Shown here: one piece after another, positions 5,760 through 38,236 of the stretch
Position numbering within the stretch: the first letter of the stretch is position 1
Layout: every line of letters starts with the position of its first letter
Assembly: GCA_965263275.1 (NCBI GenBank)
Contig: OZ253668.1
Coordinates: 795,154 to 859,153 of the forward strand
Source of the DNA: Thermodesulfobacteriota bacterium
GTDB taxonomy: Bacteria > Desulfobacterota_D > UBA1144 > Nemesobacterales > Nemesobacteraceae
Direction of reading: 5' to 3'
Length of the DNA stretch: 64,000 nucleotides
Notes under the pieces: model-generated
The model's input: the letters and a program-made list of their open reading frames with translations, nothing else
The model's database searches: none
Told to the model about the DNA's origin: nothing
Translations under genes and position numbers: made by a program

Positions 5760-6923
5760 TCAGTTGTACACTCTTATTTCATTATAAAGCGCGTCTCTTT
5801 CAACGGGAACGTATCCCGAATCCCGGATCATCTTTATCATGAAATCCCTGCTGTGACCCACCTCAGAAGGAGCACCCGCATCGTGGATGATCTTTTCCCT
5901 CATTATCGTTCCGTCCGCGTCGCTCGCGCCGTAATGCAGGGCCACCTGGGCCGCTTTTTCCCCGAGGGTGATCCAGTAGGACTTTATGTGAGGGAAGTTA
6001 TCAAGATACAGTCTCGCGAGTGCGTGAACCTTCATGTCGTATGAAGCGGGGAAGGGTTTTACGTTTTTAAGACCCGTATTTTCCGGCTGGAAAAGAACCG
6101 GAATGAATGCGAAAAACCCCGGGGACTCGTCCTCTATTCTTCTCAGTCTCTCCATGTGGTCAACGACATGGAAAGGCTTCTCCAGATGGCCGTAAAGGAT
6201 AGTGGCATTTGTCGGAATACCGAGCTTGTGGGCGAGGTGGTGGATTTCCTCCCACCTTGTCGCGACCGTCTTCGGGGCGCAGATTTTCTTTCTTACATCT
6301 TCATGCAGTATCTCCGCTCCGCCGCCCGTAAGGGCGTCCACCCCCGCGTCTCGAAGCGTAAGGAGCACGTCTTTTAGCGAAAGACCGCTTATTTCCGAGA
6401 ACCAGTCGATCTCAACTGCGGTGAAAGCCTTTACGTGAATATCCGGGTAGTGGCGCTTTATCATCTTCACTATGTCCAGATAATGATCGAATTCCCAGTC
6501 GGGGTGAAGACCTCCGACTATGTGAACCTCCCTTATCTCGTCGCTTAGCATGGAAAGCATCTGCTCGTTTGAAAGTTCATAGGCGTTGGGGGATTTCTTC
6601 GTAGTTCCAAAAGCGCAGAACCGACACGATATGGCGCATATATTCGAAGGATTAATGTGACGGTTTACGACGAAATAGACCTTCTCCCCCGATTTCTTTC
6701 TCTTAACGTAATCCGCCATCATGCCAACGGTGTTAAGATCCGGGGAATCAAGTATCAAAAGTCCGTCTTCAAAAGAAAGCCTCCGGCCCGTAGCGACCTT
6801 CTCCATTATCGGAAGCAGACTCGCGTCCGTGCAGAAACTCTCCGTCAGTTCCAGTACTCGCTCCATCTCGTCTCCACCTTGTCTTTTATATCTTCTGACA
6901 TCTCTATAACCGGGGGATACCAC
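5760..6923 (-). CDS. radical SAM menaquinone (futalosine pathway) enzyme, MqnC/MqnE family
   Basis: CAISCRFCAF radical-SAM cluster motif. The CofH/MqnC/MqnE-like fold runs for about 370 aa. It lies adjacent to the UbiD, UbiX and UbiA homologs. The start is probably the internal Met at 6866 or 6806. Confidence 0.7.
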   Translation of the reverse strand: MVSPGYRDVRRYKRQGGDEMERVLELTESFCTDASLLPIMEKVATGRRLSFEDGLLILDSPDLNTVGMMADYVKRKKSGEKVYFVVNRHINPSNICAISCRFCAFGTTKKSPNAYELSNEQMLSMLSDEIREVHIVGGLHPDWEFDHYLDIVKMIKRHYPDIHVKAFTAVEIDWFSEISGLSLKDVLLTLRDAGVDALTGGGAEILHEDVRKKICAPKTVATRWEEIHHLAHKLGIPTNATILYGHLEKPFHVVDHMERLRRIEDESPGFFAFIPVLFQPENTGLKNVKPFPASYDMKVHALARLYLDNFPHIKSYWITLGEKAAQVALHYGASDADGTIMREKIIHDAGAPSEVGHSRDFMIKMIRDSGYVPVERDALYNEIRVYN

Positions 6924-8620
6924 TGTTTTACTGTAGCGTCAATTCCCATTCTGCCGTCATAAAGAACCGCGGAACCCCGCAGTTCGGTATGTTCAAACAG
7001 AACATCCAGGTAAGGATCGAATCTAGTAAAGATACCCCAGATAAGCTCCGTGTCATCCATTATATCTATATCCGGGCTAACAATTGCAATTATACGTACC
7101 CCCTCAAGGCCGGGAGTTTCAAACAGCCTGCGTATCATCTCCTTGGGATCGGTCCTGGATTCATCAATCCGAACGACGCAGAAACCCCCCGCAAGAAGCC
7201 TGAACCCTGTTATATCCGCATGTTTTTCTCTGGGATCCGGAACCTTTTTTGCGTAGCTTTTCCTGTCAGCGGAGTTTTTCCTAACGGCGTTTATTCCCAT
7301 TTTGCTTCCCACGTTGAACTTGTTGCTCGTAAAATCAAGTGTGTCAAGAGGCGCCCACTGTATCATCAGGAAATCCTCTCTGGGATCGAAATTCTCCCCT
7401 ATCTCATTTAGCACCGCGGAAAAATCCCTGGGGTTAACGTCGCTTGAAACGCAGATCATGCATTTAGTCAGAAGAAGCTGTCCCGTTCCCCAAAGCGCGA
7501 GCATGACCTTTATCCCGCCTTTGGGATAGCGCTCATCTACGGAAACCGCGAGAAGGTTGTGAAACCCCGCTTCGGGGTACGCCCACATGTCCTTTACCTC
7601 CGGCTGTATTATCCTTATAAGCGGGGAGAACATCTCGCCCGCCGCGATCCCCAGGTAGACATCCTCCTGAGGCGGTTTGCCGACCACAATAGCGGGGTAC
7701 ACCGGGTTTTTTCTGTGGGTTATTTGCCTGAGATTAAAAACAGGGAAATCGGCCTCCATTGAGTAGTGACCGAAATGATCGCCGAAGGGTCCTTCCTGTC
7801 TCAGCACGTCTCTTGGAACAGAACCTTCAAGTATGAATTCCGCTTCGGCCGGGACGTGAAGCGAAATGCTTTTGCCCTTTACCATAGGCATCGGGCTTCT
7901 GCGAAGATAGCTTGCAAACGCAAGTTCATCCATGCCGTCTGGAAGCGGAGCGACCGCGGAGAAAATCATCCTGGGGTCTCCTCCGAGGATGACCGCAGCT
8001 TCAAGATCTCTTCCGAGTTTTTTCGCTTCGTGGTAGTGCGCGGCTCCTCCCTTGTGCGCGTGCCAATGCATCCCGGTGGTCTTGCGGTCAAATACCTGCA
8101 GCCTGTAAATCCCCAGGTTTCTCGAGCCGGTAGCGGGATCCCTTGTGAGCACCAAGCCGAAGGTTACGAACTTTCCCCCATCGCGCGGCCAGCATTTTAT
8201 CACCGGAAGCCTAGAGAGATCAGGTTCGGTTTCAACCTGCTGAACATCGCCGCGCCTCACTTTTTTCGTTCTCATGGAAAGCAGGCCGGCGGCCTTGGGA
8301 AGCACGGAGAAAATCCCCCCTATCGTGGGAGGATTAACCTTGCGGAATATCTCGACAAGTTCCTCGCCGACGTCTGAGGGTTTTCTGCCAAGGGCAAGCT
8401 CCACTCTTTCCTCGGTACCGAAGAGGTTTATGACCAGGGGGAAATCCGAGCCCTCCACGTTTTCAAACAAAAGGGCCGGGCCGCCGTCCCTAACGGTCCG
8501 CGAAGCTATTTCTGTTATTTCAAGTTCCGGCGAGACCTCGGTTTTTATTCTCTTGAGGTCGCCTATGCTTTCAAGATGGCTGATATAGCTCGAGAGATTA
8601 CGGAAACCTTTTGTGGACAT
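6845..8620 (-). CDS. UbiD-family (prFMN-dependent) decarboxylase, menaquinone/ubiquinone biosynthesis
   Basis: 591 aa, UbiD N-terminal pattern GPALLFENVEGSDFPLVINLFG. The 3' end overlaps the start of the radical-SAM gene. Confidence 0.8.
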   Translation of the reverse strand: MSTKGFRNLSSYISHLESIGDLKRIKTEVSPELEITEIASRTVRDGGPALLFENVEGSDFPLVINLFGTEERVELALGRKPSDVGEELVEIFRKVNPPTIGGIFSVLPKAAGLLSMRTKKVRRGDVQQVETEPDLSRLPVIKCWPRDGGKFVTFGLVLTRDPATGSRNLGIYRLQVFDRKTTGMHWHAHKGGAAHYHEAKKLGRDLEAAVILGGDPRMIFSAVAPLPDGMDELAFASYLRRSPMPMVKGKSISLHVPAEAEFILEGSVPRDVLRQEGPFGDHFGHYSMEADFPVFNLRQITHRKNPVYPAIVVGKPPQEDVYLGIAAGEMFSPLIRIIQPEVKDMWAYPEAGFHNLLAVSVDERYPKGGIKVMLALWGTGQLLLTKCMICVSSDVNPRDFSAVLNEIGENFDPREDFLMIQWAPLDTLDFTSNKFNVGSKMGINAVRKNSADRKSYAKKVPDPREKHADITGFRLLAGGFCVVRIDESRTDPKEMIRRLFETPGLEGVRIIAIVSPDIDIMDDTELIWGIFTRFDPYLDVLFEHTELRGSAVLYDGRMGIDATVKQWYPPVIEMSEDIKDKVETRWSEYWN

Positions 8621-8629
8621 GAGAGAGGG

Positions 8630-9181
8630 CTACTCCAGTTCGTCCCTTTTCCATCCCCTGCCGGTATCGACTCCCACAAGGCCTAAAAGTTTGTCCACAT
8701 ATCCGCTCACCACGTCCGAAATCGATTCGGCACCCATGTAGTCAGTCGGAGAAATCGGCGCGATCACGACTCCCTCGCGGGAGAGCCGCAGAGCGTTTTC
8801 AAGGGCGATTGTGCCAAGCGGGGTTTCCCGCAGGGCAATTATGAGCTTTCTTTTCTCCTTGAGCGCGACGGCCGCTATTCTGGTTATGAGTGTGTCGGCT
8901 ATGCCGTTTGCGATTTTCGCAAGCGTTGAAACCGAACAGGGCACTATGACCATGGAATCGAAATGGTTGCTTCCAGAGGAAAAAGGTGACGCCAGGTCGG
9001 AATCATTGTAAATATCGGTTACCCAGGGACGCATTTCCTCGACCTTGAGGCCGAGTTCCTCGTGAAGGACCCTCTTTCCCCATTTGCTTGCCACCAGATA
9101 TTTCTCATCGGGACATCTTCTTAGAAAATCAACCCCGTAAGCAACCCCTGAGGCCCCGGTAATTCCGACTATAGTTCTCAT
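8630..9181 (-). CDS. ubiX: flavin prenyltransferase UbiX
   Basis: 183 aa, MRTIVGITGASGVAYGV...VIVPCSVSTLAKIANG typical of UbiX/Pad1. Confidence 0.85.
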   Translation of the reverse strand: MRTIVGITGASGVAYGVDFLRRCPDEKYLVASKWGKRVLHEELGLKVEEMRPWVTDIYNDSDLASPFSSGSNHFDSMVIVPCSVSTLAKIANGIADTLITRIAAVALKEKRKLIIALRETPLGTIALENALRLSREGVVIAPISPTDYMGAESISDVVSGYVDKLLGLVGVDTGRGWKRDELE

Positions 9182-9184
9182 GGT

Positions 9185-10027
9185 TCAGGGTAAGTATATA
9201 CCCGCGAGGGTGAAAAACAAAACCGCAAACCCTATGAGAATATTGGTTCTGAAAAAAGCGGAATCCACCTGGCCGAAACTTCTGTGCTCAAGGTAAAGGA
9301 GGTACCCGCAAAGCGCTAGCGGCAAAAGCGCGAAGAAGGTCCGAAACGAAAGAAGGTACAGAAGAACAAGGGAAACGAACGAAAGCAGGTGAGCGATCCT
9401 GCAAACAAAAAGCGCCTTCTGTTTACCGAAACGGGCGACAAGAGAGAAAACACCGCGGCTGCGGTCAAATTCTTCGTCAGCGGTGGCGTATATTATGTCA
9501 AAGCCTGAAATCCAGAAAAAAGTGAAAAGCGAAAGTACGATTGCCGCGAGCATCTCATCAAAAGAGCACCTCACGGCAAGCCATCCGCCCAATGGGCCAA
9601 GCGCCAGAGAGAACCCGACGCCGAAATGACACAGGCTTGTGAATCTTTTCATCAGCGGATACACGGTAAATGCCACAAGCGGCAGCGGAGAGAGGAGAAA
9701 AACCAGCGGGCATATAAAATAAGCGGAGAGAAAGTAAAGCAGAGATCCCCCAACCGCTACCCCAACCGCTTCGTTCATGCCCATTCTGCCCGAGGGAAGC
9801 TCTCTTGCAGCGGTTCTAGGGTTTTCCCGGTCTATTTTCCGGTCGAAAATCCTGTTAAGCGCAAGGGCGACTGTCCGCGCTCCCGTGCCCGCAAGGATGA
9901 TAAGCACGAAAAGCCGGGCGCTGAAAATCCCGCCGGCGGCCAGAAAAGCCCCCGCGAAGATAACCGGAAGGGAAAAAAACGTGTGCTCTATTCTGAGAAA
10001 GCCCGAGAGGTTCTTTAAAAATGTCAT
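9185..10027 (-). CDS. UbiA-family polyprenyltransferase (MqnP or 4-hydroxybenzoate polyprenyltransferase-like)
   Basis: 280 aa multi-TM protein with NRIFDRKIDRENPRTAARELPSGRM (UbiA Asp-rich motif region). Confidence 0.8.
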   Translation of the reverse strand: MTFLKNLSGFLRIEHTFFSLPVIFAGAFLAAGGIFSARLFVLIILAGTGARTVALALNRIFDRKIDRENPRTAARELPSGRMGMNEAVGVAVGGSLLYFLSAYFICPLVFLLSPLPLVAFTVYPLMKRFTSLCHFGVGFSLALGPLGGWLAVRCSFDEMLAAIVLSLFTFFWISGFDIIYATADEEFDRSRGVFSLVARFGKQKALFVCRIAHLLSFVSLVLLYLLSFRTFFALLPLALCGYLLYLEHRSFGQVDSAFFRTNILIGFAVLFFTLAGIYLP

Positions 10028-10270
10028 TTTTAGATACGGAGTCCTACCGGATGTTTTATTTGCACGTACGGTCTTTTGAGTGAAAAGTCCCTCGCGCAGC
10101 CTTGCCCGGCTTTACTTTGCCTGTCATTTAAAATAACTGTAATCTTCTCAAACACACCGGAAATTTCAATGAGAATCCGAAAGGCAATTCCACGGGAGGC
10201 AAAAACGGGGGGCTGGATCCAATGCCGCTTCCGTTCCCCAGAACCCGCGTTTTGAACCTAGGCAAAAACG

Positions 10271-10962
10271 ATGGAAACATTTGAAGCGCTGATTTTAAGA
10301 AAATCCAGTTACGGGGAAGCCGATCTTCTGGTAACGCTTTTCTCAAGGGAATCCGGAAAATTCAGGGCGCTTGCCAAAAACGCGAAAAAAAGCCGGAAGC
10401 GCTTCGGAGGACGACTCGATTTCTTTAACCGTCTCTCAATTGACGTAACTCTGAACAAAGGAAGATTCAATCTCATCGGGGACGTGACCTTAAAGCAAAC
10501 CTACAGGGATATAGCGGAATCGGTGGACTCTTTCGCTACGGCAACCCGCGTTCTTGAACTTGTGGATTTCCTCATTCCCGAACAGGAACCCGCAAGCGAG
10601 TTGTTCGACCTCGCCGCAGACACTCTGGAACTTCTCTCAAAAAAATGGGAACCGTATTCCGTTTTCCTCGTTTTCCTCCTCCGCGCGCTAACTCTTTGCG
10701 GCTACAGACCCGATTTGCGTTTTGACAAGGGAAAAGACATTGCGGGTTTTGACGTGGAAAACGGGAGGGTCTGTAACCTCGAGAAACTCAGAGTAAAAGA
10801 AACGTTTATCACTTTCACATGGACATAATGAGACGTCCAGAAATCATGGATAAAAACCCTGAGAAAGTAAAGAACAACATACGGGTTCTCACGAGATACA
10901 CCGAATACCTTACCAGCAAGCGTCTTGGGAAAAGCGATTTTGCGGGTGAGACCGCAACATGA
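10271..10962 (+). CDS. recO: DNA repair protein RecO, interrupted by a frameshift at about 10805 in this sequence
   Basis: ORF 10271..10828 carries the RecO N-terminus (ALILRKSSYGEADLLVTLFSRESGKFRALAKNAKKS). The C-terminal continuation (...MRRPEIMDKNPEK...KRLGKSDFAGE) is in the +2 frame up to 10962. The shift lies at a T-run (cgtttatc). Confidence 0.6.
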
Positions 10963-10991
10963 AGTGGAGAGCCGCTACGCCGGGCCCCCTG

Positions 10992-12185
10992 TCAAGTCCT
11001 GTAATCAGAATTGATAGAGACATACCTGTGGCTCAGGTCGCTTGTAAGAAGCGAGTAAGTCTCTTTTCCCTCTCCAAGGCTCAGGGTTACCGTAAAGGAC
11101 GGTTTTTTGAATACGGAGGCGAACCTTGATTCCGGCTGGGACCTAACACCTTTTGAGAACACTTCAGTCTCATCGAAATAGAGCTTTATTTTTTCGGGAT
11201 CGATCCCGACGCCGGCCCTGCCGGCGGCCGCCACTATCCTTCCCCAGTTAGCGTCCTCTCCGTAAAACGCGGTCTTAACGAGCTGGGAAGTGGCTATCGT
11301 CCTTGCGATTTTCTCGGCGTCTCCCTCGGTCCTTGCCTCCGTAACACTGATTCTTACGACCTTCGTAGCCCCTTCACCGTCGCTTACTATCATTTCGGCG
11401 ATCTCCCCGCATAGAGACGAAAGCGCCTCTACAAACTTCCCGTAATCCTCGCTTTTCTCGGTGATTTTCCCGTTCCCGAGAACCCCGTTTGCGAGGATAA
11501 AAACGGAGTCGTTAGTGGAAGTGTCCCCGTCAACCGTCATGGCGTTAAAGGAACCTTCCGCGGCCGCAGAAAGAGCCTTCGAAAGAGCCTTCCGCCCGAT
11601 GTTAAGATCCGTCATTATAAAACAGAGCATGGTCGCCATGTCGGGACATATCATCCCCGCCCCCTTGGCGATAGCCGAGACGGTGGCGGTCTTTTCTCCC
11701 AATACTAACTCTCTCACGGGGAACTGCCTCGATGCATATTTGGGAAAGGCGTCGGTCGTCATTATGGCTTCCGCGGCCTCCCGAGCGTTATCCTCACCGA
11801 GGCCCCTTACGAGCCTGGGGATGGACTTTTTGATTTTCCCGGCGGGAAGCTTTTGCCCTATAACACCGGTTGACGAAGGAATTACGAGCGACTCGTCTAT
11901 TCCGAGCCGGCTGGAGAGCGAGTTTGCCACGTCAAGCGAGTCTTGGTATCCCCTTTTGCCCGTGCAGGCGTTTGCGTTCGCGCTGTTTATGATTATCGCC
12001 TGGCAGAACCCGCTTGCTATTCTCTCCTCGGCAAGAAGCACGGGCGCCGCCTTTATCAGGTTTTTCGTGAATATGGCGGACGCGCGGGCCGGAGCGGTTG
12101 AGAATATGAGAGCCAAGTCCTTTTTCTCGTTTTTCTTAAGTCCGGCGGATACGCCGCTTAGCAGAAATCCCGGTGCGTTTTTCAT
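10992..12185 (-). CDS. argJ: bifunctional glutamate N-acetyltransferase/amino-acid acetyltransferase
   Basis: 397 aa. The ATMLCFIMTD autoproteolytic-site region and overall ArgJ architecture are present. Confidence 0.9.
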   Translation of the reverse strand: MKNAPGFLLSGVSAGLKKNEKKDLALIFSTAPARASAIFTKNLIKAAPVLLAEERIASGFCQAIIINSANANACTGKRGYQDSLDVANSLSSRLGIDESLVIPSSTGVIGQKLPAGKIKKSIPRLVRGLGEDNAREAAEAIMTTDAFPKYASRQFPVRELVLGEKTATVSAIAKGAGMICPDMATMLCFIMTDLNIGRKALSKALSAAAEGSFNAMTVDGDTSTNDSVFILANGVLGNGKITEKSEDYGKFVEALSSLCGEIAEMIVSDGEGATKVVRISVTEARTEGDAEKIARTIATSQLVKTAFYGEDANWGRIVAAAGRAGVGIDPEKIKLYFDETEVFSKGVRSQPESRFASVFKKPSFTVTLSLGEGKETYSLLTSDLSHRYVSINSDYRT

Positions 12186-12316
12186 AGGGAAATTATATAC
12201 AAACTATGCTGTCTACGGAATAAGAACCGGAAAACCCGAAGGAAACTGCAACTCCCGCGGAACAACCGCCGGGAAAGAGGCTCCCCGTACCGCTTCCTTT
12301 AACGCTCCCGCTAGGT

Positions 12317-13420
12317 TCACTTGTGATCAGAACCGGTAATCTCGCTCAGGTCGCTAATTCCGTTTTTATCCATGAACCCAAGGAGCCCCCTGTTTATCGA
12401 GTTCGCAACCGATAGCCCCTCTCCGCGAAGACCAGTGACTACTTGGAGGGCTTTCGCTCCCGCGCGCAACTTCTCAAGCGCAGAAGCCGTGTCGCACACC
12501 CCTCCGACTCCGATTATCTCGACCTCCCCGCCGGTAGTGCGGTAAATGTGGGAAATAATTGACGTGGAAAGCGATTTGTACTCAAAATCGTTTCCGCTTA
12601 TTCCCCCAGGAAGACCTTCCCACTTCGCGCCGTATTTTCCCTTAACCAGGCCGCTGTCTGTCGTATTGGTGGCGATTACGCCTGAAATCCCGGAATCGAT
12701 CACGACCTTTAGTACATTGTCTATCGCTTCGGTGGCAAGGTCAGGAGAGATTTTTACAAACAGGGGTTTGGCGCCGGAAGAATCCCCGAGAGACTCCCTT
12801 ACGGCCCGTATTATCTCCTCAAGCCGCCCTCCGTCCTGAAGCCTCCTTAATCCCGGGGTGTTAGGAGAGCTCACGTTTATGGCAAAGTAGGCCGCGTTGC
12901 CGCGGAACTTCCGGGCGACGGCCGCGTACGCCCGCGCGGCGTCTTCGTGGTCTACATCGGAGTTTATGCCGAGGTTCACTCCCACGGGCATGTCCAGGCG
13001 GCCGTACCACGCGAGGTTTCGGAATACAGCATCCATCCCCGGGCTGTTAAGTCCAAGAGAGTTGAGACACACCTCCGGGGTCACCATGAACTGTCTCGGC
13101 TTCGGATTTCCCCTCTGGGGTCTCTCAACGACCGAACCCACCTCAACTCCCCCAAAACCAATCGAGTACAGGGCCTTAACCGCCCTTGCGGTCTTATCCC
13201 ACCCGGCACCCACGATAAGGGGGTTCTCAAAGGGCACTCCGGCAATCGTAACGCCAAGTCTTTTGTCCCGGACCCTGGCTCCACCGCTTGCGGCAAATTC
13301 AAGAAGTCTCAATGTAAGACCCGAGAACTCGCAAAGATGCATAAGCTCCTTTACGTTATGGTGCCATGTTTCAGAATCAAGGCGGTCAAGAACCGGTCTT
13401 ACAAAAGTTTTATAGCTCAT
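12317..13420 (-). CDS. pyrD: dihydroorotate dehydrogenase (quinone), class 2
   Basis: 367 aa with an N-terminal membrane-association extension, plus GLNSPG and NVSSPNTPGLR motifs. Confidence 0.9.
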   Translation of the reverse strand: MSYKTFVRPVLDRLDSETWHHNVKELMHLCEFSGLTLRLLEFAASGGARVRDKRLGVTIAGVPFENPLIVGAGWDKTARAVKALYSIGFGGVEVGSVVERPQRGNPKPRQFMVTPEVCLNSLGLNSPGMDAVFRNLAWYGRLDMPVGVNLGINSDVDHEDAARAYAAVARKFRGNAAYFAINVSSPNTPGLRRLQDGGRLEEIIRAVRESLGDSSGAKPLFVKISPDLATEAIDNVLKVVIDSGISGVIATNTTDSGLVKGKYGAKWEGLPGGISGNDFEYKSLSTSIISHIYRTTGGEVEIIGVGGVCDTASALEKLRAGAKALQVVTGLRGEGLSVANSINRGLLGFMDKNGISDLSEITGSDHK

Positions 13421-13491
13421 TACCCTGAGAAGATTTTATCCGAATCAGGGAACTTCGGGAAAAGCCGGCTTTAAAAAGGAATACCGGAAGA

Positions 13492-14592
13492 TCAGACATT
13501 GAACCTGAAAAACATCACGTCCCCGTCGCAGACCTCGTACTCCTTTCCCTCAACCCTCATCTTCCCGGCTTCCCTAACCATCTGCTCCGAACCCTCGTTT
13601 ATGTAATCTTTGTAGGATATGGTCTCGGCTCTTATGAAGCCCCTTTCGAAATCGGTGTGGATAACCCCGGCCGCCTGAGGCGCCCTGGTCCCTTGGCGAA
13701 CAGTCCATGCTCTTACTTCCTTAGGCCCCGCGGTAAAATAGGTGAGAAGTCCGAGATTCGAGTACGCGGAGTTAACAAGCCTGTCAAGGCCGGAATCGCT
13801 AAGCCCGAGTTCCCCTAGAAAAGCCGCCCTTTCCTCTCCTTCAAGCTCGGATATTTCAGCCTCTATCCTGGCAGAGACAATGATAACATCATCCCCCGAG
13901 CGGCTTGCGTGTTCTTTTACCTTCCGGACTTCAGCGTTTTCTTCAGTTCCCGAGACTTCATCTTCGGAGACGTTGCAGACGTAAATAACGGGCTTTGAAC
14001 TTAGAAGAAAAAGCTCCCGCACAGTATCCGCGCATTGCTCTGACCCGGGAAAGTCGCGCGCGCGCTTCCCCGTCTCGATAAACTCCCTAAGCGACCTTAC
14101 CGTCTCAAATGCCCGGACCATTTCCCTGTCCCTGCTTTTGGCCTGCGTTGAGAGTCTTTCCTCTCTTTTCTCAACTGTTTCAAGGTCCTTTAGGATAAGT
14201 TCGTCTTCAATCGTGCGGATATCCCGGATGGAGTCAATCCCCTCTTCCACGTGGATAACGTTTTCATCCTCAAAACATCTGACCACGTGCAGTATCAAAT
14301 CCACGTCCCTTATATGGGACAAAAAGGCGTTTCCCCGGCCCTTTCCCTCAGAAGCTCCCTTCACGAGCCCCGCGATGTCAACGATCTCTATGCTTGTGGG
14401 GATGGTTTTCTCCGGTCCTACGATATCCGAGAGCGCATAAAGTCTGGGGTCCGGAACTCCGACGACTCCTATGTTCGGATCTATGGTGCAGAAAGGAAAA
14501 TTGGATGCGGCAACGCTCGCGTTTGTGAGCGCGTTGAAAAGAGTTGACTTCCCGACATTGGGAAGTCCTACTATTCCGCATCCTAGTCTCAT
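13492..14592 (-). CDS. ychF: redox-regulated ribosome-binding ATPase YchF
   Basis: The track ORF runs to 14667, but its first 25 codons overlap tRNA-His. The real start is MRLGCGIVGLPNVGKSTLFNALT (G1 P-loop) at 14592. A C-terminal TGS domain is present. Confidence 0.85.
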   Translation of the reverse strand: MRLGCGIVGLPNVGKSTLFNALTNASVAASNFPFCTIDPNIGVVGVPDPRLYALSDIVGPEKTIPTSIEIVDIAGLVKGASEGKGRGNAFLSHIRDVDLILHVVRCFEDENVIHVEEGIDSIRDIRTIEDELILKDLETVEKREERLSTQAKSRDREMVRAFETVRSLREFIETGKRARDFPGSEQCADTVRELFLLSSKPVIYVCNVSEDEVSGTEENAEVRKVKEHASRSGDDVIIVSARIEAEISELEGEERAAFLGELGLSDSGLDRLVNSAYSNLGLLTYFTAGPKEVRAWTVRQGTRAPQAAGVIHTDFERGFIRAETISYKDYINEGSEQMVREAGKMRVEGKEYEVCDGDVMFFRFNV

Positions 14593-22868: not shown

Positions 22869-23961
22869 TCACGCACCGGCCTTCACACGACCGGAGTCAA
22901 CGAAAAACGAGTGGAACTCCCCCCGACGGGGTATCTCGTCTTTATCGGTCGAGGTAACGAACACCTGCCCGGTAAATTCTGAGAGCGTCTGGAAAAGAAA
23001 GCCCCTGCGTTCCATGTCAAGTTCGCTCGTTATGTCATCAAGAAGAAGTATGGGATTGGTCCCCGTATGCTCCTTAAAGAGCCTTATCTCCGAGGCCTTG
23101 AGCGCCAGAACCAGGTTTTTTGACTGTCCCTGCGAGGCAAAGCGCGAAGCGTCCTGTCCGTTCAGCAGAAAACCGACCCGGTCCCTGTGGGGACCGACGG
23201 TCGTGTGACCTCTTTTTCTGTCCGAAGGGAAATTCTTTGAAAGTGCCTCCCTTATACCCTCACCGAGGTCCGCCTTGCGTTCAAAGGAAAACCCGTAGCT
23301 TATGTGCGCCGACGTGTCCGATTCCCCATGCTCCCCGTAAACTTCGGCAAGTTTGCGGTTAAAGCTCTTTATCATCTCGATACGTCTGCTTACGATGTCG
23401 GCTCCGCCCCTGGCTATCTGCTCGTCCCATAGTTCCATTGGAAAGCGCAGACACTTTCTCTCTTGAAGCAAGCATATGGTTTCTCTGGCTCACGGCCCTC
23501 TGGTAGTCGCGAAGCTGCTTGATGTGAACCGGGTAAACGGCGCTTATCACGGAATCAAGATAATTTCTTCTGGCCTGCAACCCTCCCTTTACTATCTCTA
23601 TGTCCGACGGAAGAAACAAGACCACTTTGAATCGACCGAAGTGCTGGCTTATGCTCCGCACGGTCTTTGAGTTAAGCCGTGTGTGGCGGCCTTCTTTCTT
23701 CACGGTTATGTGCACTTCGTTCAAGCCGTTTCCCGAAAGAATCTCCCCCTTTACGAGCGAGGCTTCGCAGCCGAAGCGCACAAGGTCAGAGTTTTTCGCG
23801 CCCGAGAAAGGCCGCAGCCCGCAGACAAGATAAATGGCTTCGAGAAGGTTTGTTTTCCCCTGGGCGTTTCGACCGTGAATGACGTTGAATCCCGGATAGA
23901 ACGGAAGGGAAAGGCTCTCGTAATTTCTGTAGTTCCTAAGGCTTAGATGTTTGAGCTGCAC
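22869..23961 (-). CDS. recF: DNA replication and repair protein RecF, frameshifted at about 23455
   Basis: The N-terminal half (MQLKHLSLRNYRNYESL...GRNAQGKTNLLEAIY Walker A) and the C-terminal half (ELWDEQIARGG...LLLDDITSELD signature/Walker B) are separate ORFs joined across an A-run. Confidence 0.8.
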
Positions 23962-24061
23962 TTGATTTGCCGACTGTTTTTTTTCTGAGAAAAACCGCTT
24001 CTCCGCTTTCCGCGGATACTTTCTTGACCATAAAATTTTAAGCGTTAATATCTTTTTTGAA

Positions 24062-26179
24062 ATGATATCGCTTAAAATATCGGAAATCCACTCAAAAGAC
24101 TGCGGGAAAGGCTATGCCAAGATCAGCAGCATGGACATGAAGGAGCTCGGCCTCACGTCCCGGGACCTCATACAGATAGACGGAAGAAGAAAGACCGTTG
24201 TGAGAGCCATGCCGCTTGATGCGGATGAACGGGAACCGGAGTCCGTCATAGAAATAGACATGGTAACCAGAGAAAACGCGGGAGTGGGGCTTGACGACAT
24301 AGTAATAGTAACAAAAGCCGATCTTGAAAAGGCAAGCCGGATAACCCTGTGTCCGAGAAACAAGGCTTTTCTCTACGACCCCGCTAAAAACAAGCGTCTT
24401 TGCAACAGACTCGAAGGACTTGCCGTAACGGCCGGAGACAGGGTGTCAGTCAAAATGTCCTCCGCTAAGACCGAAGACTTCGATGTGCTTACCACAATGC
24501 CTGAGCCCTCAGTGGTCATAAGCCAGAAAACCCGCATGGACGTGATACAGAGACCCAGAACCAGAGTAGACGCAGAGAGGATCTCGTACGCGGACATAGG
24601 AGGATTTTCAAGCCAGCTAAGAAGAATAAAGGAGATTTTTGAATTTCCGATACGCTTTCCCTCGCTTTTTGAAAAACTCGGAGTCCAGCCACCCAGGGGA
24701 ATCCTTCTGACAGGCCCCCCGGGAAGCGGAAAGACCCTGCTTGCAAAAGCCATAGCGTTTGAGACGGATTCAAATTTTCAAGTAATAAACGGCCCCGAGG
24801 TAATTCACAGGTTCTACGGAGAAAGCGAGGCCAAGCTGCGCCAGATATTTGAGAACGCGACGAAGAATCAGCCTTCAATAATATTCCTTGACGAACTCGA
24901 CGCGATAGCTCCTCGCCGGGACAAGGTGACGGGAGACGTGGAAAAAAGAGTAGTGGCACAGCTCCTCTCCCTCATGGACGGACTCAAGGACAGGGGAAAC
25001 GTTACGGTTATCGGAGCGACGAACCTTCCCGACATGATTGATCCCGCGCTACGGCGCCCGGGCAGGTTTGACAGGGAGATTTACCTCCCGGTTCCCGATA
25101 CCAAGGCGCGCCTCGAGATATTTCAGGTTCATTCAAGGAGTATGCCGCTTTCAAATGACGTGGATCTTCAGAGACTCTCTGAGCTTTCAAGCGGCTATGT
25201 GGGAGCCGACATAGAGAATCTCTGCAGAGAGGCGGCCATAAATTCTCTTACCAATATTCTGCCGGACATAGAGCATGACTCCGTCTCCGACCTCGGACAC
25301 AGCTTTCCCGTTGAAGTCAGTATGGAAGACTTCCTTGAGGCGCTTCGCAACATCCATCCCTCGGCAATAAGGGAGATAGTGGTTGAGATACCGAAAACCT
25401 CCTGGGAGGATGTGGGAGGTCTTGAGAACGTAAAAAACGATCTGATTGAATCCGTTATATGGCCGATGAAGCACAGAAATTTCTACGAAGCTCTCGACGT
25501 GACGTCACCGAAGGGAATACTGCTCTACGGTCCGCCTGGAACGGGAAAAACCCTTCTTGCAAAAGCGCTTGCGAACAGAACGGAAGTCAACTTTATTTCC
25601 ATAAAGGGAGCGGAGCTTCTCTCCAAGTATGTCGGCGAATCGGAGCGCGCTGTAAGGGAAGTCTTCAGAAAGGCAAAGCAGGTTTCTCCCTGCATAGTGT
25701 TTTTTGATGAACTCGACGCTCTTTGTCCCAGACGATCCGAATCAAACTCAACCCGCGTGAGCGAAAGAGTCGTAAGCCAGATGCTTGCTGAAATCGACGG
25801 GGTTGAGGAACTCCCGGATGTTCTGGTGCTGGCCGCGACAAACAGGATTGACATGGTTGAACCGGCACTTCTGCGACCCGGGAGATTTGACTTGGTAGTC
25901 GAAGTTCCGACTCCGTCAAAACAGGGAATTCTTGAGATCCTGAAGATCCACACTCGGAAAAAACCTCTCGGTACCGACGTGAAAATCACCGCGCTTGCAA
26001 AACAGCTTGAGGGCAGAACCGGAGCGGACGTAAGACTTGTATGCAACCGGGCTTCCCTGCACGCGATAAAAGAACACCTGGGGAAAAGCAGGAAAGTCCT
26101 TAAACTCTGCAAAAGACATTTCGACCTGGCGCTTTCGGAACTTCAAAAAAGAAGCCTTTGCATAACACCAAGGCACTAG
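24062..26179 (+). CDS. Cdc48/VCP/p97-like double-ring AAA+ ATPase (N domain + D1 + D2)
   Basis: 705 aa. N-terminal double-psi-barrel-like region, then two AAA modules ([18 protein letters not shown]...IIFLDELDA and [18 protein letters not shown]...IVFFDELDA) with SRH regions. Confidence 0.8.
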
Positions 26180-26183
26180 TCTC

Positions 26184-27049
26184 TTGGAAAATTCTTCTTT
26201 CTTTCTAAACAGCATTCTTCCCGGGATATGGTTTTTCATGCTGGGGGCGGCGCTTGGAAGCTTCGCGAACGTCTGCGTGAGGAGAATTCCGGCGGGGGTC
26301 TCCGTCATCTCTCCCCGCTCCCGCTGCAATAGCTGCGAAACCCCCATCAGGGCTTTTCACAACATTCCCGTTTTAAGCTGGGTTTTCCTCGGGGGCAGCT
26401 GTTCCTACTGCAAAGAGCGGATATCTGTCGAATATCCGATTGTGGAACTTCTATGCGGAGTACTTGCGCTTTTTCTCTACAGGGAGCTTGGAGTCTCGCT
26501 TGAGCTGTTTTTCTACCTCGCGCTTTGCGTATCGCTTGTTGTTATAACCCTGATAGACATAAGACATCTTATTATTCCCGACATGATAACGCTGCCGGGA
26601 ATAGCTGGCGGGATTGCGCTTAACGCGATCAGAACCGACTGGGGGACGGCGACAGATGTGCTTTTTTCTTCCGGGTTCGCGAACTTTCTGCCTGCAACAG
26701 CGAATATCGCGATTTTAAATTCCATAGGGGGAGCGCTGCTTGGAGGAGGAACTTTTTACTGATCGCTACTCTGTACAAAACAGTTAGAAAAAGAGAAGGA
26801 ATGGGAATGGGTGACGTCAAGCTTGTTTCAATGCTGGGCGCTTTCTTTGGAATGTGGGGAGTGCTGATCATAATATTTCTAAGTTCCATTCTGGGAACCC
26901 TGATAGGACTGTCGGTTATAATACTGCGCAGAAAGGACCCGGGACACGCTATTGCCTACGGTCCTTTTCTTTCCTTCTCGGCTGTGTTGTATCTGCTCGG
27001 AGACAAACTTTTTCTCCTCCTCGGAATAAACATCGGGCCCCTTGGGTAA
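26184..27049 (+). CDS. pilD: type IV prepilin leader peptidase (A24 family, PilD), frameshifted at about 26757
   Basis: N-terminal GSFANVCVRRIP and CNSC...CSYC zinc-binding motif. The downstream part GMGDVKLVSMLGAFFG (catalytic Asp region) is in another frame and rejoins across a T5 run. Alternative start at Met 26238. Confidence 0.75.
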
Positions 27050-27869
27050 AACCATGAACAGAATAATCAAAAATCTTTTTCTTCTGATCGTCATAGTTAT
27101 CGCGGCTAAGTTTCTGTTTGCGACATTCGGAAAGGGCCTTTCCACCGAATACACGGAAAAAATAATCCTTGGGGATTGGACGGAACAGAGCATTGAAACG
27201 CTTATAGAAAAAGCCGGCGCGAAAGATAGTCCCGAGGGGAAAATAGAATTTCTCTCGGAAAGTTTCCTAGAAACTCCCTACGCCGACAATACCCTCGGCG
27301 GAGGAAGCGGGCAGAGGGAGCAACTTACCGTGGATCTCTCAGGACTCGACTGTTTTACCTATATCGACTACGTGGAATCGCTAAGACTGTCGGGAAGCTT
27401 CGGGGAATTCAAGGGAAAGCTCGCGGAAATCAGATACAAAGACGGTGCGGTGAAGTGGGAGAGAAGGAAACATTTTTTCTCGGACTGGGTTAGCGGAGAC
27501 GATAAAAACGCGAATGATGCCACCAGGGAAGTCGGAGGCGACGCCGTGGCAACGGCAACCAAGGAATTAAACAGGAGAGCAGACGGCTCTTTGTGGCTCC
27601 CGGATCTCGCGGCAGTAAAAAGGGAGATAAACTACATCCCCTCTCAGGAAATCAGCCCACAGATACTTCGAGCGATACAGACGGGAGACTACCTCGGGAT
27701 ATACTCCGATAAAGACGGTCTTGACGTTTCTCACACAGGGATCGCTGTAAGAAAGGACGGCGGGGTTTACCTGCGTCACGCTTCTTCGGTGCATAAAAAA
27801 GTGCTGGACGAAGAGCTTACCGTTTACATGAAAAACAAGCCCGGACTCTTGGTATACAGGGTAAAATAA
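27042..27869 (+). CDS. DUF1460-like protein (putative Cys/His amidase-like), N-terminal membrane anchor
   Basis: 275 aa. TM helix NLFLLIVIVIAAKFLF, then conserved-looking LDCFTYIDYVESL and VSHTGIAV segments. Assigned from memory of the family, not from a search. Confidence 0.4.
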   Translation: MGKTMNRIIKNLFLLIVIVIAAKFLFATFGKGLSTEYTEKIILGDWTEQSIETLIEKAGAKDSPEGKIEFLSESFLETPYADNTLGGGSGQREQLTVDLSGLDCFTYIDYVESLRLSGSFGEFKGKLAEIRYKDGAVKWERRKHFFSDWVSGDDKNANDATREVGGDAVATATKELNRRADGSLWLPDLAAVKREINYIPSQEISPQILRAIQTGDYLGIYSDKDGLDVSHTGIAVRKDGGVYLRHASSVHKKVLDEELTVYMKNKPGLLVYRVK

Positions 27870-27935
27870 CAGATTATGTGGTAAAATCAGAACTGCCCCA
27901 AGGCGGGGCATGATCGCAATCAAGGAGGCGGATTA

Positions 27936-28352
27936 ATGTCTTTAGACCCAAAAGAACTCACGAAATGTCTTAAGGAAGTGAAAAAAGCGCAGGACTCTCT
28001 GGATAATATTCTGGATTTTGTAGACCTGATGAAAAACATAAAGGAATCGTTTCCGGGAGACGTAATGACTCCGGCTGAGAAGATCAAGGAAATCTCAAGC
28101 GCCGCGGCTCCTTACATAAAGGAGATAAAGGCCGTTTTTGACGTGGAGCTCAACAAGATTCCCATAAACGACGAAGAGGTTGCCGACGCCGCGAAGAAAC
28201 TGGTTCTTTATCATGGAGACCACGTGCAGGTTCTTATCTGGGCCGAACAGCAGAAGACGAACCACGATCCGGACTCCTACTGGTGGAGATATTGGGACGG
28301 TATAACGGGAAACGTAAGAGAGGATATGGCGCAGCATCAAAAACAGCCCTGA
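27936..28352 (+). CDS. hypothetical protein
   Basis: 138 aa ORF with good coding appearance (RBS-like GGAGG 8 nt upstream). No recognised domain. Trp-rich C-terminus (YWWRYWDG). Confidence 0.3.
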   Translation: MSLDPKELTKCLKEVKKAQDSLDNILDFVDLMKNIKESFPGDVMTPAEKIKEISSAAAPYIKEIKAVFDVELNKIPINDEEVADAAKKLVLYHGDHVQVLIWAEQQKTNHDPDSYWWRYWDGITGNVREDMAQHQKQP

Positions 28353-28422: not shown

Positions 28423-29863
<1,441 letters not shown>

Positions 29864-33907: not shown

Positions 33908-35305
33908 TCAACGGATCATATCCGCATAAATTTTTCTGGCCGCAAGTTCTGCTGAACGCACACAATCGGGAATTCCAACACCAGAATAGGCAGCTCCGCA
34001 AAGAGCAAGTCCCGAGTGGTGGGAAAGCCTGTGCATAACCCCTGAGATTTTTTCCTTATGTCCCAGCGCATAACGCGGCATGGACATCGGATATCTCCTG
34101 ATATGAGTTTCCGTCGGAGAGTTGTCACATCCGAATATTCTCGAAAGTTCCTCCATCAAAACGGCCTTTATCCTCTCCTCGTCCCAAAGAACCGCTTCGG
34201 GGTTAAGTTCTCCGCCAAAAAAACACCTGACCACAACTTTGTCGCTTCCGGATTTCTCAGGGAACTTGCTGCTGTATAACGAACACGCCACAAGATTCAT
34301 TTTCTCCACAGAAGGAATTATAATCCCCAAACCATCGGGAAGACCGCGGAAATCCTTTTCATCGAAGACAAGACTCGCGACAACGGAAGAGACATAGCGC
34401 ACATTTGAGAGTTCGGCTCCGAGCCGCGGATCAACATCAGAGAGCAGCAGCCCCGCCGTATCGGCGCGGGTGGACAGAACTACGGCGTCAAACTGTTCCT
34501 CTCCACGGTCAGAACCAAGAAGCCATCCCTTCCCCGATTTCTTAAGGGACAAGACCGCAGTCTCAAAATCCTGTCTCGCAAATTCGGCGCTTTCGCGAAG
34601 TTTCTCAACGATAACGGACATCCCCTGAGCGGGAGTTAAAAAAAGGCCGTACCTGGCACCACTTTCACCACGGGAGGTGGGAGGATTACGAAGAAGATCC
34701 CAAAGAACGCTTCCGCTTCGCTTCTCCATTTCAAGGAACTGTGGCATGGTGGACGAAAGACTGAGCTTGTCCGGGTCGGCCATGTAGATTCCGCCTAGAA
34801 GAGGCTGCGCGGCCTTGTCAAAAATTTCCCTTCCGAATCTCCTTTCCACAAACGAAGAGACGCTTTCATCCTCTCCGCCGCCGCGCGGAACCAGGGGTTC
34901 AAGAAGCACCCTAAGTTTGGCTCCGGCGCTGAACAGCCCGCAGCGCAGGAAGGGCAGAAGCTTTGAGGGAGCCATGAGAAAAAAACCTTCGGGAAGTGCT
35001 TGCAGCTTCCCGCCGTGATATACAAACGTGTTTTTCCCGCTGCCGTAACCCACTCCGAGGAGCGAATTCTCAAGTCCCAGTTCTTTTGCAAGATCAAGCG
35101 CCCAGGGCTTTGACGTTATGAAGGAGTCGGGACCAAGTTCAAGAACCATATCCCCCTTTTTTACAGTATCGAAAACCCCGCCCAGGCGGTTTGAGGACTC
35201 AAAAAGAACAAGTTCGAGAGGAACACTCTCCTCCCGGCAAAGCTTTCTCAGATAATGGGCAGAGGAAAGACCCGAGATCCCTGCGCCGACAATCGCGACT
35301 TTCAT
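33908..35305 (-). CDS. hemY: FAD-dependent protoporphyrinogen/coproporphyrinogen III oxidase (HemY family)
   Basis: Rossmann dinucleotide motif VAIVGAGISGLSSA. The 465 aa length is PPOX/CgoX-like. It is last in a hemE-hemH-hemY cluster. Confidence 0.75.
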   Translation of the reverse strand: MKVAIVGAGISGLSSAHYLRKLCREESVPLELVLFESSNRLGGVFDTVKKGDMVLELGPDSFITSKPWALDLAKELGLENSLLGVGYGSGKNTFVYHGGKLQALPEGFFLMAPSKLLPFLRCGLFSAGAKLRVLLEPLVPRGGGEDESVSSFVERRFGREIFDKAAQPLLGGIYMADPDKLSLSSTMPQFLEMEKRSGSVLWDLLRNPPTSRGESGARYGLFLTPAQGMSVIVEKLRESAEFARQDFETAVLSLKKSGKGWLLGSDRGEEQFDAVVLSTRADTAGLLLSDVDPRLGAELSNVRYVSSVVASLVFDEKDFRGLPDGLGIIIPSVEKMNLVACSLYSSKFPEKSGSDKVVVRCFFGGELNPEAVLWDEERIKAVLMEELSRIFGCDNSPTETHIRRYPMSMPRYALGHKEKISGVMHRLSHHSGLALCGAAYSGVGIPDCVRSAELAARKIYADMIR

Positions 35306-36274: not shown

Positions 36275-38236
36275 CTAAATACCTGTTCCCGCGGAGTACT
36301 GGTGAACTTCATCAATCAGCCTGAGAACATTGTCAACCGGTGTCTGCGGCAGTACTCCGTGACCCAGGTTGAATATGTGGCCGGGCTTCCCTCCTACCCT
36401 GTCCAGTATCTTCCTTGCCTCCTCAACGACGTGAGAGGGGGTTGAGAGCATAGAAACGGGATCAAGATTCCCCTGAACCGCAAGAGAGCTGCCGGCTCTG
36501 CGCCAGCCGTCAAGAATATCGACCCTCCAGTCAAGACCGATAACTCCAGCTCCGGTCCTCCCCATGAGTTCGAGAAGAGAGCCGGTTGCGGTCCCGAACA
36601 ATATTACCGGAACACCCGACGGGAGCGTGGAGATGAGTTTCTTTACGTGCGGAAAGATGAACTTTTCATAATCCGCAGGAGAGAGACAACCTACCCAGCT
36701 GTCGAAAATCTGCACTGCATCGGCCCCTGCTTCCACCTGAGCGCAAAGGTAGTCCGAAATGCTCGCGGTCAGAATTTCCATAAGCCTCTCCCACAAAGAA
36801 GGGTCCCCGTACATAAGCTTTTTCGTGTTGACGTAGTTTCTTGAGCCCCTTCCCTCAATCGCGTACGACGCTACGGTAAACGGAGCGCCGGCAAAACCCA
36901 GAAGCGAAACTTCGGGATCAAGCGCCTCTCTGGTAGTACGCACAGCCTGGTAGACAAAGTCCATGCTTTCCGGATGAAATTCTCTCAGGGCCTCTATGCG
37001 TTTTCGTGTTCGAAGGGGGTTGGCTATCACGGGACCGTCAACGCTTGAATACTCAAGCGAAAGCCCCAGGGGTTCCAGGATAAGCAGTATGTCGGAGAAA
37101 ATGATAGCCGCGTCCACGCCGAGTCGGTCAACCGTCATAAGCGTAATTTCCGAAGCTATGTCCGGGGTCTTGCAAAGCTCCATGAACGGAACGCGGGAGC
37201 GGACCTCTCTGTATTCCCGGAGAAACCTGCCCGCCTGGCGCATAAGCCAGATGGGAGTATGATCGGCTTTCTCGAGCCGGCACGCCTTCATAAACGCCCC
37301 CGCGGACGTAATTTCGCTTCTTCGGGCCCGCGTGCCGTCCCCAGACCAGACCATCTGCGTACGGCTCCAGTTTCGGGTATCGACACCGTTTTGAAAGGCG
37401 GTTCTTTTTTTCGCCAGAAGCGCCGCGGACCTTCTGGCCGTCTCTCTCACCAGATTTCCCATTTTCGGGCTGTCGGGCTCATAGTCAACGGATATTCCGT
37501 TTCCTCTAAGCGTTTCGGTAGTGGATGGTCCGATTGAACATATAAGAGCTTTTTTCATCCCCTCCATAAATTCAGTGGCACACTCGTGCGTACCTGCCAC
37601 CTCAAAAAGATTGGATACCTGCCGGGAACTTGTGAACAGCAGACAATCCTCAGCGCCCTCGGATATGGACCTTACCGCGTCCTGCAGGGGACCCAGATCC
37701 TCCGGCAGCGCCCATCTGTAAATTGGAATTCTTCTTACGTCCGCCCCTCTTTTTTCAAGGGAAGCGAGAAATTCTTCATTGGAAACGCCGTATTCCTGAA
37801 CATACACGACCAGGTCTTCAAGCGACATGTCCCTCTGGTCAAAAGTGGAGAGTATATCCCTCCACGTGTTCGGTTCAGAAACGGTGATATCAGGCCTCAT
37901 GCCGAATCTGCGAAGGGCCGCGACGGGTTTCGGACCTCTTGTGAGAATCGTTGTTGAGCGCAGAGCCTCAACATACTCTTTTTCCCCGGACTCCTCGATT
38001 ACCATGTCGGAGAGAATTCGGGTTCCCACCCCAGTCATCAGAATAAGCATATCAACGTTGCCGGAGAAAAGGTCATCAGCAAACCTGACAACGTAAGGAC
38101 TTTTCAGATCAGGGACTTCCCTCATCGAGGGCGCGACCCTGGGGACACCGCCGTGATAAGAGATAAGTTTTTTCATCTCCTCACAGCGACGACTTTCAAA
38201 AGACGTCACCTTAAGTCCGTTAAAACCCTGTTTCAT
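36275..38236 (-). CDS. hemE: apparent bifunctional uroporphyrinogen-III synthase (HemD, aa 1 to about 275) / uroporphyrinogen decarboxylase (HemE, aa about 316-653)
   Basis: N-terminal HEM4/HemD-like domain, then PIWLMRQAGRFLREY (URO-D signature 1) and the full HemE domain. About 35-residue non-conserved linker contains an A7/T7 homopolymer at 37405-37411. Confidence 0.8.
   Translation of the reverse strand: MKQGFNGLKVTSFESRRCEEMKKLISYHGGVPRVAPSMREVPDLKSPYVVRFADDLFSGNVDMLILMTGVGTRILSDMVIEESGEKEYVEALRSTTILTRGPKPVAALRRFGMRPDITVSEPNTWRDILSTFDQRDMSLEDLVVYVQEYGVSNEEFLASLEKRGADVRRIPIYRWALPEDLGPLQDAVRSISEGAEDCLLFTSSRQVSNLFEVAGTHECATEFMEGMKKALICSIGPSTTETLRGNGISVDYEPDSPKMGNLVRETARRSAALLAKKRTAFQNGVDTRNWSRTQMVWSGDGTRARRSEITSAGAFMKACRLEKADHTPIWLMRQAGRFLREYREVRSRVPFMELCKTPDIASEITLMTVDRLGVDAAIIFSDILLILEPLGLSLEYSSVDGPVIANPLRTRKRIEALREFHPESMDFVYQAVRTTREALDPEVSLLGFAGAPFTVASYAIEGRGSRNYVNTKKLMYGDPSLWERLMEILTASISDYLCAQVEAGADAVQIFDSWVGCLSPADYEKFIFPHVKKLISTLPSGVPVILFGTATGSLLELMGRTGAGVIGLDWRVDILDGWRRAGSSLAVQGNLDPVSMLSTPSHVVEEARKILDRVGGKPGHIFNLGHGVLPQTPVDNVLRLIDEVHQYSAGTGI

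Follow-up and report, generated by a model that had tools for sequence, protein, structure and literature searches.

Proteins of the CDC48 family are double-ring AAA+ ATPases in which an N-terminal domain precedes two ATPase domains, D1 and D2, an architecture found in archaeal VAT (Thermoplasma acidophilum, PDB 5g4f/5g4g) and in p97/VCP. Among bacteria, the actinobacterial Cdc48-like lineage known as Cpa associates with the 20S proteasome without a classical HbYX tail (PMC6017811), and sporadic archaeal-type Cdc48s of non-actinobacterial bacteria have been placed in an archaeal cluster (Ziemski et al. 2018, PMC6017811). Here, we analyzed a 64,000-nucleotide stretch of DNA from a Thermodesulfobacteriota bacterium (contig OZ253668.1; hereafter, the window), in which a 705-amino-acid (aa) protein shares the N-D1-D2 architecture of VAT and p97. 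It is encoded by the first of four same-strand genes at 24062 to 28352, which are cdc48 (24062..26179, + strand), the type IV prepilin peptidase/N-methyltransferase gene pilD (26184..27049, +), a gene for an AmiA-like (DUF1460, PF07313) NlpC/P60-type amidase (27042..27869, +; 275 aa), and a 138-aa open reading frame (ORF; 27936..28352, +). The closest named homologues come from metagenome-assembled genomes of Candidatus Dadabacteria. A preliminary description had reported four co-oriented genes separated by 4 nt (26179 to 26184), −8 nt (27049/27042), and 66 nt, and the ORF coordinates agree with this. Our central result concerns the first two genes. As far as our searches show, cdc48 and pilD form an undescribed, lineage-specific conserved gene pair, made up of new members of known families.

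By its sequence, the 705-aa protein is a genuine CDC48-family N-D1-D2 ATPase. It scored 803.9 bits against TIGR01243 over residues 2 to 675, a narrow margin above the cutoff of 802.65, and Pfam recognized CDC48_N (PF02359, E = 2.3e-19, residues 4 to 87) together with two AAA (PF00004) and two AAA_lid_3 domains. The CDC48_2 domain, which was detected in the Cdc48 proteins of relatives, was not among the matches listed for the window protein. Alignments extend over residues 19 to 674 with p97 (E ~1e-196) and over residues 2 to 595 with VAT (E ~1e-191), which bears out the N, D1, and D2 domains originally proposed. The possibility that this was instead an FtsH- or ClpC-like protein was also considered, but the FtsH, PAN, and ClpX models scored far under their own cutoffs, and the CDC48 assignment stands. 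In PADLOC, the protein gave generic AAA-domain matches only (IetA and TRIP13). Since nothing beyond such matches was obtained for the cluster proteins, the cluster is not a known defense system.

The motifs expected of an active double-ring ATPase are present in both domains. Specifically, Walker A (GPPGSGKT, residues 218 to 225; GPPGTGKT, 490 to 497), Walker B (273 to 280, with DELD at 277 to 280; 545 to 552, with DELD at 549 to 552), the arginine fingers (RRPGRFD at 331; LRPGRFD at 604), and the pore loops (FYG, 251 to 253, in D1; YVG, 523 to 525, in D2) vary little or not at all within the clade to which the protein belongs. Each ring has an aromatic pore-loop residue, as is also the case in both pore loops of VAT, and an aromatic D1 loop is characteristic of archaeal VAT and not of p97. 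The protein is accordingly predicted from these features to be a double-ring hexameric unfoldase, and its gene is constrained, with a ratio of nonsynonymous to synonymous substitution rates (dN/dS) of 0.07 to 0.16.

The comparison with described systems also reveals differences. The HbYX C terminus is absent from the window protein, which ends in CITPRH, and from every sub-clade inspected; among more distant homologues, it occurred in 0 of 41 bacterial and 11 of 36 archaeal proteins. Without this tail, docking to the 20S proteasome is not expected. Cpa is likewise a bacterial double-ring protein without a classical HbYX motif, but the organism here is of Dadabacteria type, and no proteasome gene was seen among the surveyed ORFs of the window. 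Relative to VAT, the window protein is bacterial and lacks the HbYX tail, and its pilD context recurred at none of the 36 archaeal loci. It fits among the sporadic Cdc48s of non-actinobacterial bacteria, being about as similar to archaeal as to other bacterial homologues (46 to 53% identity), yet it differs from them in belonging to a monophyletic, long-stemmed clade with a gene context of its own.

That context was highly conserved. When the 120 best Cdc48 matches were clustered, they formed about ten sub-clades, nine of which we examined. In all nine, pilD lay directly 3' of cdc48, at a distance of −23 to +44 nt and at Cdc48 identities ranging from 58 to 98%; the stop codon of cdc48 and the start codon of pilD even overlap at two loci (L091 and L094). 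The cdc48-pilD order, part of the neighborhood that the preliminary description had singled out for comparison with related genomes, was therefore retained. The commonest arrangement consisted of a divergent recF, followed by cdc48, pilD, a HAMP/HisKA histidine kinase (HK), a sigma54 response regulator (RR), the AmiA-like gene, and an ORF of ~130 aa, which at one locus (L093) was followed by obg, matching the window. The window lineage and one other locus (L006) have the same order minus the HK and RR genes. On that account, the four genes came to lie side by side secondarily, in a co-directional cluster that is older. In its ancestral form, this cluster reads cdc48-pilD-HK-sigma54 RR-AmiA-like-small ORF, and the window lineage lost the HK/RR pair from it. 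The best models for the kinase and regulator of L093 were AtoS/ZraS and AtoC/NtrC, all under their cutoffs, and a HAMP domain was found in some of the relatives' kinases. The pair, which is absent from the window, is a generic NtrC-type system, and a PilS/PilR label is not justified.

When the window was compared with the most distant sub-clade, no genes were shared over 14 to 18 kb except recF, cdc48, pilD, and at times the AmiA-like gene. The cdc48-pilD pair survives rearrangement on both sides, while the wider flanks are scrambled. RecF was encoded upstream of cdc48 in eight of nine sub-clades, the exception being L094, which nonetheless keeps pilD next to cdc48, and a metallo-beta-lactamase (MBL) hydrolase gene was another often conserved neighbor. 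Because the unrelated recF and MBL hydrolase genes are also conserved, synteny in this clade is an unreliable sign of shared function. One gene has visibly moved. In two distant clade members, an amine-oxidase (protoporphyrinogen-oxidase-like) gene follows the kinase/regulator pair (L009:11982-13406) or stands directly after pilD (L013:10958-12400), and the homologous gene of the window is found ~8 kb further downstream, on the opposite strand (33908-35305, −). This displacement is a trace of local rearrangement.

Outside the clade, the linkage disappears. A scan of species-representative genomes yielded at least 594 matching stretches, of which we analyzed the best 80. Three were members of the clade, and the other 77 (41 bacterial, from many phyla, and 36 archaeal) encoded Cdc48s with 45 to 53% identity to the window protein. 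At none of these 77 loci did tblastn detect PilD, the AmiA-like protein, the small ORF, or RecF within ~8 kb, and a PilD profile hidden Markov model (HMM) also found nothing within ~8 kb of cdc48. In a neighbor-joining tree, which took in no Cpa sequence, all of the pilD-linked Cdc48s formed one monophyletic, long-stemmed clade. This monophyly, along with the lack of linkage at 77 other loci, indicates that the linkage arose once and was then kept. The order of cdc48 and pilD is more than chance. Literature searches on Cdc48 with a prepilin peptidase found nothing relevant, in line with the initial impression that the association was unfamiliar. The impression that such unfoldases are rare in bacteria outside Cpa was overstated, given 41 bacterial loci from many phyla in the best 80 of at least 594 stretches and the precedent in PMC6017811. 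As for the linkage itself, its conservation was borne out, but only within one clade and with recF also adjacent in eight of nine sub-clades, so that it is a weak pointer to function.

Some other bacterial Cdc48s also have a fixed context. At five unrelated bacterial loci (L017, L038, L041, L056, and L073), hosted by Phycisphaerales, Desulfobaccales, two 'Deltaproteobacteria', and Crenothrix, a Cdc48 homologue is encoded within a cluster of gas-vesicle type (at about 5000 to 14000 in each) with the order sigma54 regulator, Hsp20/GvpH, Cdc48, GvpF/L, GvpF/L, PAS kinase, and receiver. Like the pilD-linked clade, these are conserved operons that include a sigma54 regulator and a histidine kinase. 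Unlike it, they encode Cdc48s from a different clade in the tree and carry gvp genes in place of pilD, and genes for gvpH/Hsp20, gvpF/L, and gvrA/B/C were absent from the surveyed ORFs of the window and from the clade loci. From gene order only, we infer that Serratia GvpZ is a Cdc48 homologue. Bacterial Cdc48s are fixed in at least two operon contexts, one with pilD and the other with gas-vesicle genes.

The partner of cdc48 is a predicted canonical type IV prepilin peptidase. It has in common with the MEROPS A24A enzymes PilD/XcpA/GspO the combination of A24_N_bact and Peptidase_A24, two invariant aspartates, a four-cysteine motif, and a polytopic topology. Pfam recovered A24_N_bact and both halves of Peptidase_A24 from the pilD product, and D125, D211 (within GMGMGD), and C48/C51/C73/C76 were invariant across eight clade sequences. 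Its length is normal, dN/dS ranged from 0.09 to 0.19, and neither NCBIfam (searched with the intact protein) nor PADLOC returned a match. What sets the gene apart from those of PilD/XcpA/GspO is its position directly after cdc48, with no adjoining pilB/pilC or gsp genes. Furthermore, no gene for a type IV pilus (T4P) or type II secretion system (T2SS) was found in the 64-kb window, where Pfam was run on 30 further large ORFs, or in the clade loci. A regular expression for prepilins (class III signal), applied to all frames of the window and 16 clade loci, gave spurious antisense matches only. A T2SS has been reported in only some Dadabacteria clades (PMC8115339) and, where present, would supply PilD with an ordinary client.

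Although the preliminary description took pilD to be one intact gene, a 1-nt deletion at 26753 splits it in the window. The two resulting frames, 26184-26762 (192 aa) and 26801-27049 (82 aa), each hold half of Peptidase_A24. The break falls in a run of five T residues (26753-26757) that has six in L002, L097, L098, and L099, while in L095 the extra base sits one position further on; adding one T to the window sequence restores a PilD of 288 aa with seven hydrophobic segments. The gene is intact in L095, L097, L098, and L099, whose assemblies are 99.7 to 99.9% identical to the window. Compared with L097 (99.9% identity over 10.4 kb), the window has just two indels, one in recF at 23438 and the other in pilD at 26753; compared with L095, a 1.69-Mb circular contig with 537x coverage, identity is 99.8%, again with these two indels alone. 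At position 23438, recF has an extra T relative to L095, L097, L099, and L002. Against L002, which is 97% identical, there are more single-base indels, located in mgtE (19706, 19911, and 20018) and in an MBL-fold gene (21998), and several conserved genes of the window are cut into two ORFs each by such changes. In view of the intact near-identical copies and the purifying selection, we take the pilD frameshift to be an artefact: it is most likely an assembly error and at most a very recent lesion. Since the only two indels over 10.4 kb relative to L097 both fall in coding regions, the pattern suggests an error-prone assembly and not gene decay. That pilD might be a decaying pseudogene in the window lineage was ruled out by dN/dS and by the intact copies. 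A practical point follows, namely that the window assembly contains single-base indels that break real genes.

The third gene of the cluster had been described as a DUF1460-like Cys/His protein, and this held up well. Its product matches PF07313 (E = 1.1e-65; 221.3 bits, cutoff 27), has relatives of known structure (2p1g and 4h4j/4q5k/4q68), and places C104, H231, and H246 within conserved Cys-His-His motifs aligned to 2p1g. A Cys-His-His triad is described for DUF1460/AmiA-type amidases (PMC10318531), and both PF07313 and these motifs are common to the Bacteroides AmiA/DUF1460 amidases (PDB 4h4j and 4q5k). The Bacteroides enzymes differ in context, as the window gene is paired with a clade-specific 138-aa ORF in the cdc48-pilD cluster. 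A single hydrophobic segment at residues 4 to 22 forms an N-terminal signal anchor, on account of which the protein is probably exported, and we regard it as a predicted exported NlpC/P60-type amidase. The gene has a second possible ATG start at 27054 and a dN/dS of 0.14 to 0.24, and its product had no match in NCBIfam or PADLOC.

The 138-aa ORF encodes a cytoplasmic, clade-restricted helical bundle with invariant LYHG and SYWW-YW motifs. It is preceded by an AAGGAGG Shine-Dalgarno sequence, and dN/dS ranged from 0.09 to 0.24. No Pfam, NCBIfam, or PADLOC match was obtained. There are 67 homologues, and all those with an organism name belong to Candidatus Dadabacteria; just 34 representatives matched among 1.84 billion proteins, and a profile search of the same 1.84 billion representatives detected no relatives beyond this small family. 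Structure prediction, as suggested at the outset, gave a confident AlphaFold2 model of five helices (predicted local distance difference test score, 92.7), but fold searches with it returned no informative structural match. In one strain variant, other genes take the place of the AmiA-like one ahead of the small ORF and obg (L096:147-4856, ENA ERZ26694896 ctg82281, which corresponds to the stretch immediately upstream of window position 27936). Identity to the window begins abruptly at window position 27868, and the genes on the far side encode Vsr, a DDE transposase, Multi_ubiq, a ThiF-type E1 (DUF6791), BubE, and an HSDR_N_2 protein. These genes resemble a mobile insertion with a cassette for bacterial ubiquitin-like conjugation (Bub-type).

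Within the cluster, a conserved promoter motif was seen in front of cdc48 only. The spacer between recF and cdc48 (23962-24061) contains two conserved promoter-like elements placed back-to-back, one of which would serve recF (22869..23961, −; recognized from split ORFs and frameshifted at 23438, as noted above). The other, at 24024..24051 (+), has the sigma-70-type form TTGACC, a 16-nt spacer, and TAATAT. Its hexamers are the best-conserved columns in an alignment of the intergenic region from 12 clade loci, in which no shared operator motif was seen, and it is a putative promoter of cdc48; the sigma-70 consensus scan overall was without enrichment (5 sites versus 3.7 expected). In the window, a mere 10 nt lie between the end of the −10 box and the ATG of cdc48, where relatives have 15 to 30 nt more, and the cdc48 mRNA would thus have a very short or absent 5' leader. 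We searched 15 clade loci for a sigma54 promoter (a TGGCAC-N5-TTGCA-like pattern in which GG and GC were required and 9 or more of 11 positions had to match). None of them contained one, and thus nothing indicates that the cluster is under the control of its own regulator.

Downstream, the arrangement of the genes is consistent with readthrough. Since cdc48 and pilD are only −23 to +44 nt apart, a promoter would have scarcely any space between them, or none, and co-transcription of the pair is probable. No convincing intrinsic terminator was found on the + strand between the four genes. A G+C-rich hairpin with a 7-bp stem (27894..27910), located in the 66-nt gap that precedes the small ORF, has no T-tail on the + strand and is therefore not a canonical terminator for the cluster. 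The co-oriented obg GTPase gene (28444..29481, +), for which GTP1_OBG/MMR_HSR1 was detected in syntenic loci, possibly belongs to the same transcription unit. The four-gene operon of the preliminary description is thus upheld in part: cdc48 and pilD are probably transcribed together, but HK and sigma54 RR genes separate pilD from the AmiA-like gene in most sub-clades.

Elsewhere, the window consists of housekeeping chromosome, with genes for heme, menaquinone, the glyoxylate shunt, PriA, and GlnE (Pfam, 30 further large ORFs). Rfam and tRNA scans of the locus found nothing. At 36275-38236 (−), a 653-aa fusion joins HemD (uroporphyrinogen-III synthase, N-terminal) to HemE (uroporphyrinogen decarboxylase, C-terminal) and adjoins the genes for ferrochelatase and the protoporphyrinogen-oxidase-like amine oxidase. 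Tandem paralogous genes for Ogg-HhH (8-oxoguanine DNA glycosylase) occupy 45731-46375 and 46401-47051 (+). An AbiEi antitoxin/AbiEii nucleotidyltransferase toxin pair (type IV toxin-antitoxin/abortive infection) at 47882-49568 (−) sits in the stretch of lowest GC content in the window (0.426 at 48-50 kb).

Taken together, our results are most consistent with a conserved, co-transcribed, lineage-specific operon of ordinary parts, in which Cdc48 and PilD need not be mechanistically coupled, and we would put the probability of this interpretation at roughly 55%. Its support comes from family matches, intact motifs, purifying selection on all four genes (dN/dS 0.07 to 0.24), gene order, and the promoter motif. 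In such an operon of a Dadabacteria-type lineage, transcription would be driven by the sigma-70-type promoter. A Cdc48/VAT-like hexamer would thread proteins through its pore by means of the aromatic loops, with both rings hydrolyzing ATP, and would act as a stand-alone cytoplasmic unfoldase or segregase in protein quality control, independently of a proteasome. PilD would cleave the leader of type IV pilin-like proteins and N-methylate them, its likely substrates being T2SS pseudopilins or T4P pilins whose genes would lie in other parts of the genome, while the AmiA-type muramoyl-L-alanine amidase would serve in cell-wall turnover. The products of cdc48 and pilD would be co-expressed, each with its own ordinary function. 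In this, the pair would resemble further conserved gene pairs in which pilD stands beside an unrelated housekeeping gene. Yet, several points weigh against this interpretation. The pair is kept where RecF is only 44 to 51% identical, sometimes with overlapping codons, and it is kept in L094 without an adjacent recF. Such persistence exceeds usual neutral synteny and favors some selective link between the two genes. In addition, the 3' end of cdc48 may hold an internal promoter.

It is possible, albeit with considerably less confidence, that Cdc48 and PilD constitute a module for handling membrane proteins in which Cdc48 extracts pilin-type inner-membrane proteins or PilD itself. Cdc48 would grip a short cytoplasmic leader or N terminus, so that uncleaved, surplus, or misassembled substrates are removed for degradation, and cleavage by PilD would decide whether a substrate retains that handle. 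The strict retention of the pair in nine of nine sub-clades, tight or overlapping despite changes in the flanks and in recF, would be expected of such a module, as would a linkage that originated once and has been retained since, purifying selection on both genes, and the envelope-related genes of the cluster (those for an exported amidase and for a two-component system). That each ring has an aromatic pore-loop residue fits a processive unfoldase, based on comparison with VAT. Nevertheless, none of 77 other Cdc48 loci shows the linkage, even when the PilD profile HMM is used, and PilD itself is of normal length with no extra domain for binding Cdc48. There is no pilin-like substrate gene in the window or clade loci, recF is conserved nearly as well without a plausible functional tie, and we found no literature precedent for Cdc48 with a prepilin peptidase. 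The extraction or processing module raised in the preliminary description is speculation, with no pilin-type substrate or T4P/T2SS gene nearby in either the window or the clade loci. A more elaborate version, which we consider doubtful, is an undescribed bacterial dislocation and processing module in which an archaeal-type unfoldase pulls pilin-like proteins or PilD clients from the inner membrane. Cleavage by PilD might be the license for assembly rather than removal, and the 138-aa protein might act as an adaptor. Such a module would be a functional analogue of p97 and the GxGD or rhomboid-type intramembrane proteases in endoplasmic reticulum-associated degradation (ERAD). The simpler module, too, would have a counterpart in ERAD, where p97 works downstream of a GxGD intramembrane protease, signal peptide peptidase (SPP); this analogy is a lead and not a test.

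Two further explanations do without any tie between Cdc48 and PilD. An unlikely one is that cdc48 was inserted beside pilD once, after horizontal acquisition, and that the genes have since been transcribed and used independently. The single origin of the linkage, its confinement to one clade, and the retention of the unrelated recF and MBL neighbors would agree with a frozen accident of this kind, but a promoter of its own for pilD would hardly fit, if at all, into gaps of −23 to +44 nt, the sole conserved promoter motif lies upstream of cdc48, and the pair survives rearrangements on both sides. Alternatively, recF could be the real partner of Cdc48, with the unfoldase helping to clear proteins from DNA during gap repair and pilD riding along. 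The divergent recF-cdc48 arrangement, with its short shared intergenic region, is indeed kept in eight of nine sub-clades. We consider this scenario very improbable, as the two promoters are separate and back-to-back with no shared operator motif seen, L094 has pilD without an upstream recF, and recF was near Cdc48 at none of the 77 other loci.

The Dadabacteria, a candidate phylum, are commonly found in sponges and in the ocean. To our knowledge, no function has been assigned to the sporadic Cdc48 homologues of non-actinobacterial bacteria, and the pairing with pilD gives one of these scattered proteins a fixed genomic partner that is retained clade-wide. If the two proteins turn out not to be coupled, the locus would be one more warning that housekeeping genes of unrelated function can be held together in a tightly conserved operon. 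If they do share a pathway, the pair would provide the first case in bacteria of a Cdc48-type segregase that cooperates with an intramembrane aspartyl protease, and it would offer a simple prokaryotic model for ERAD-like extraction.

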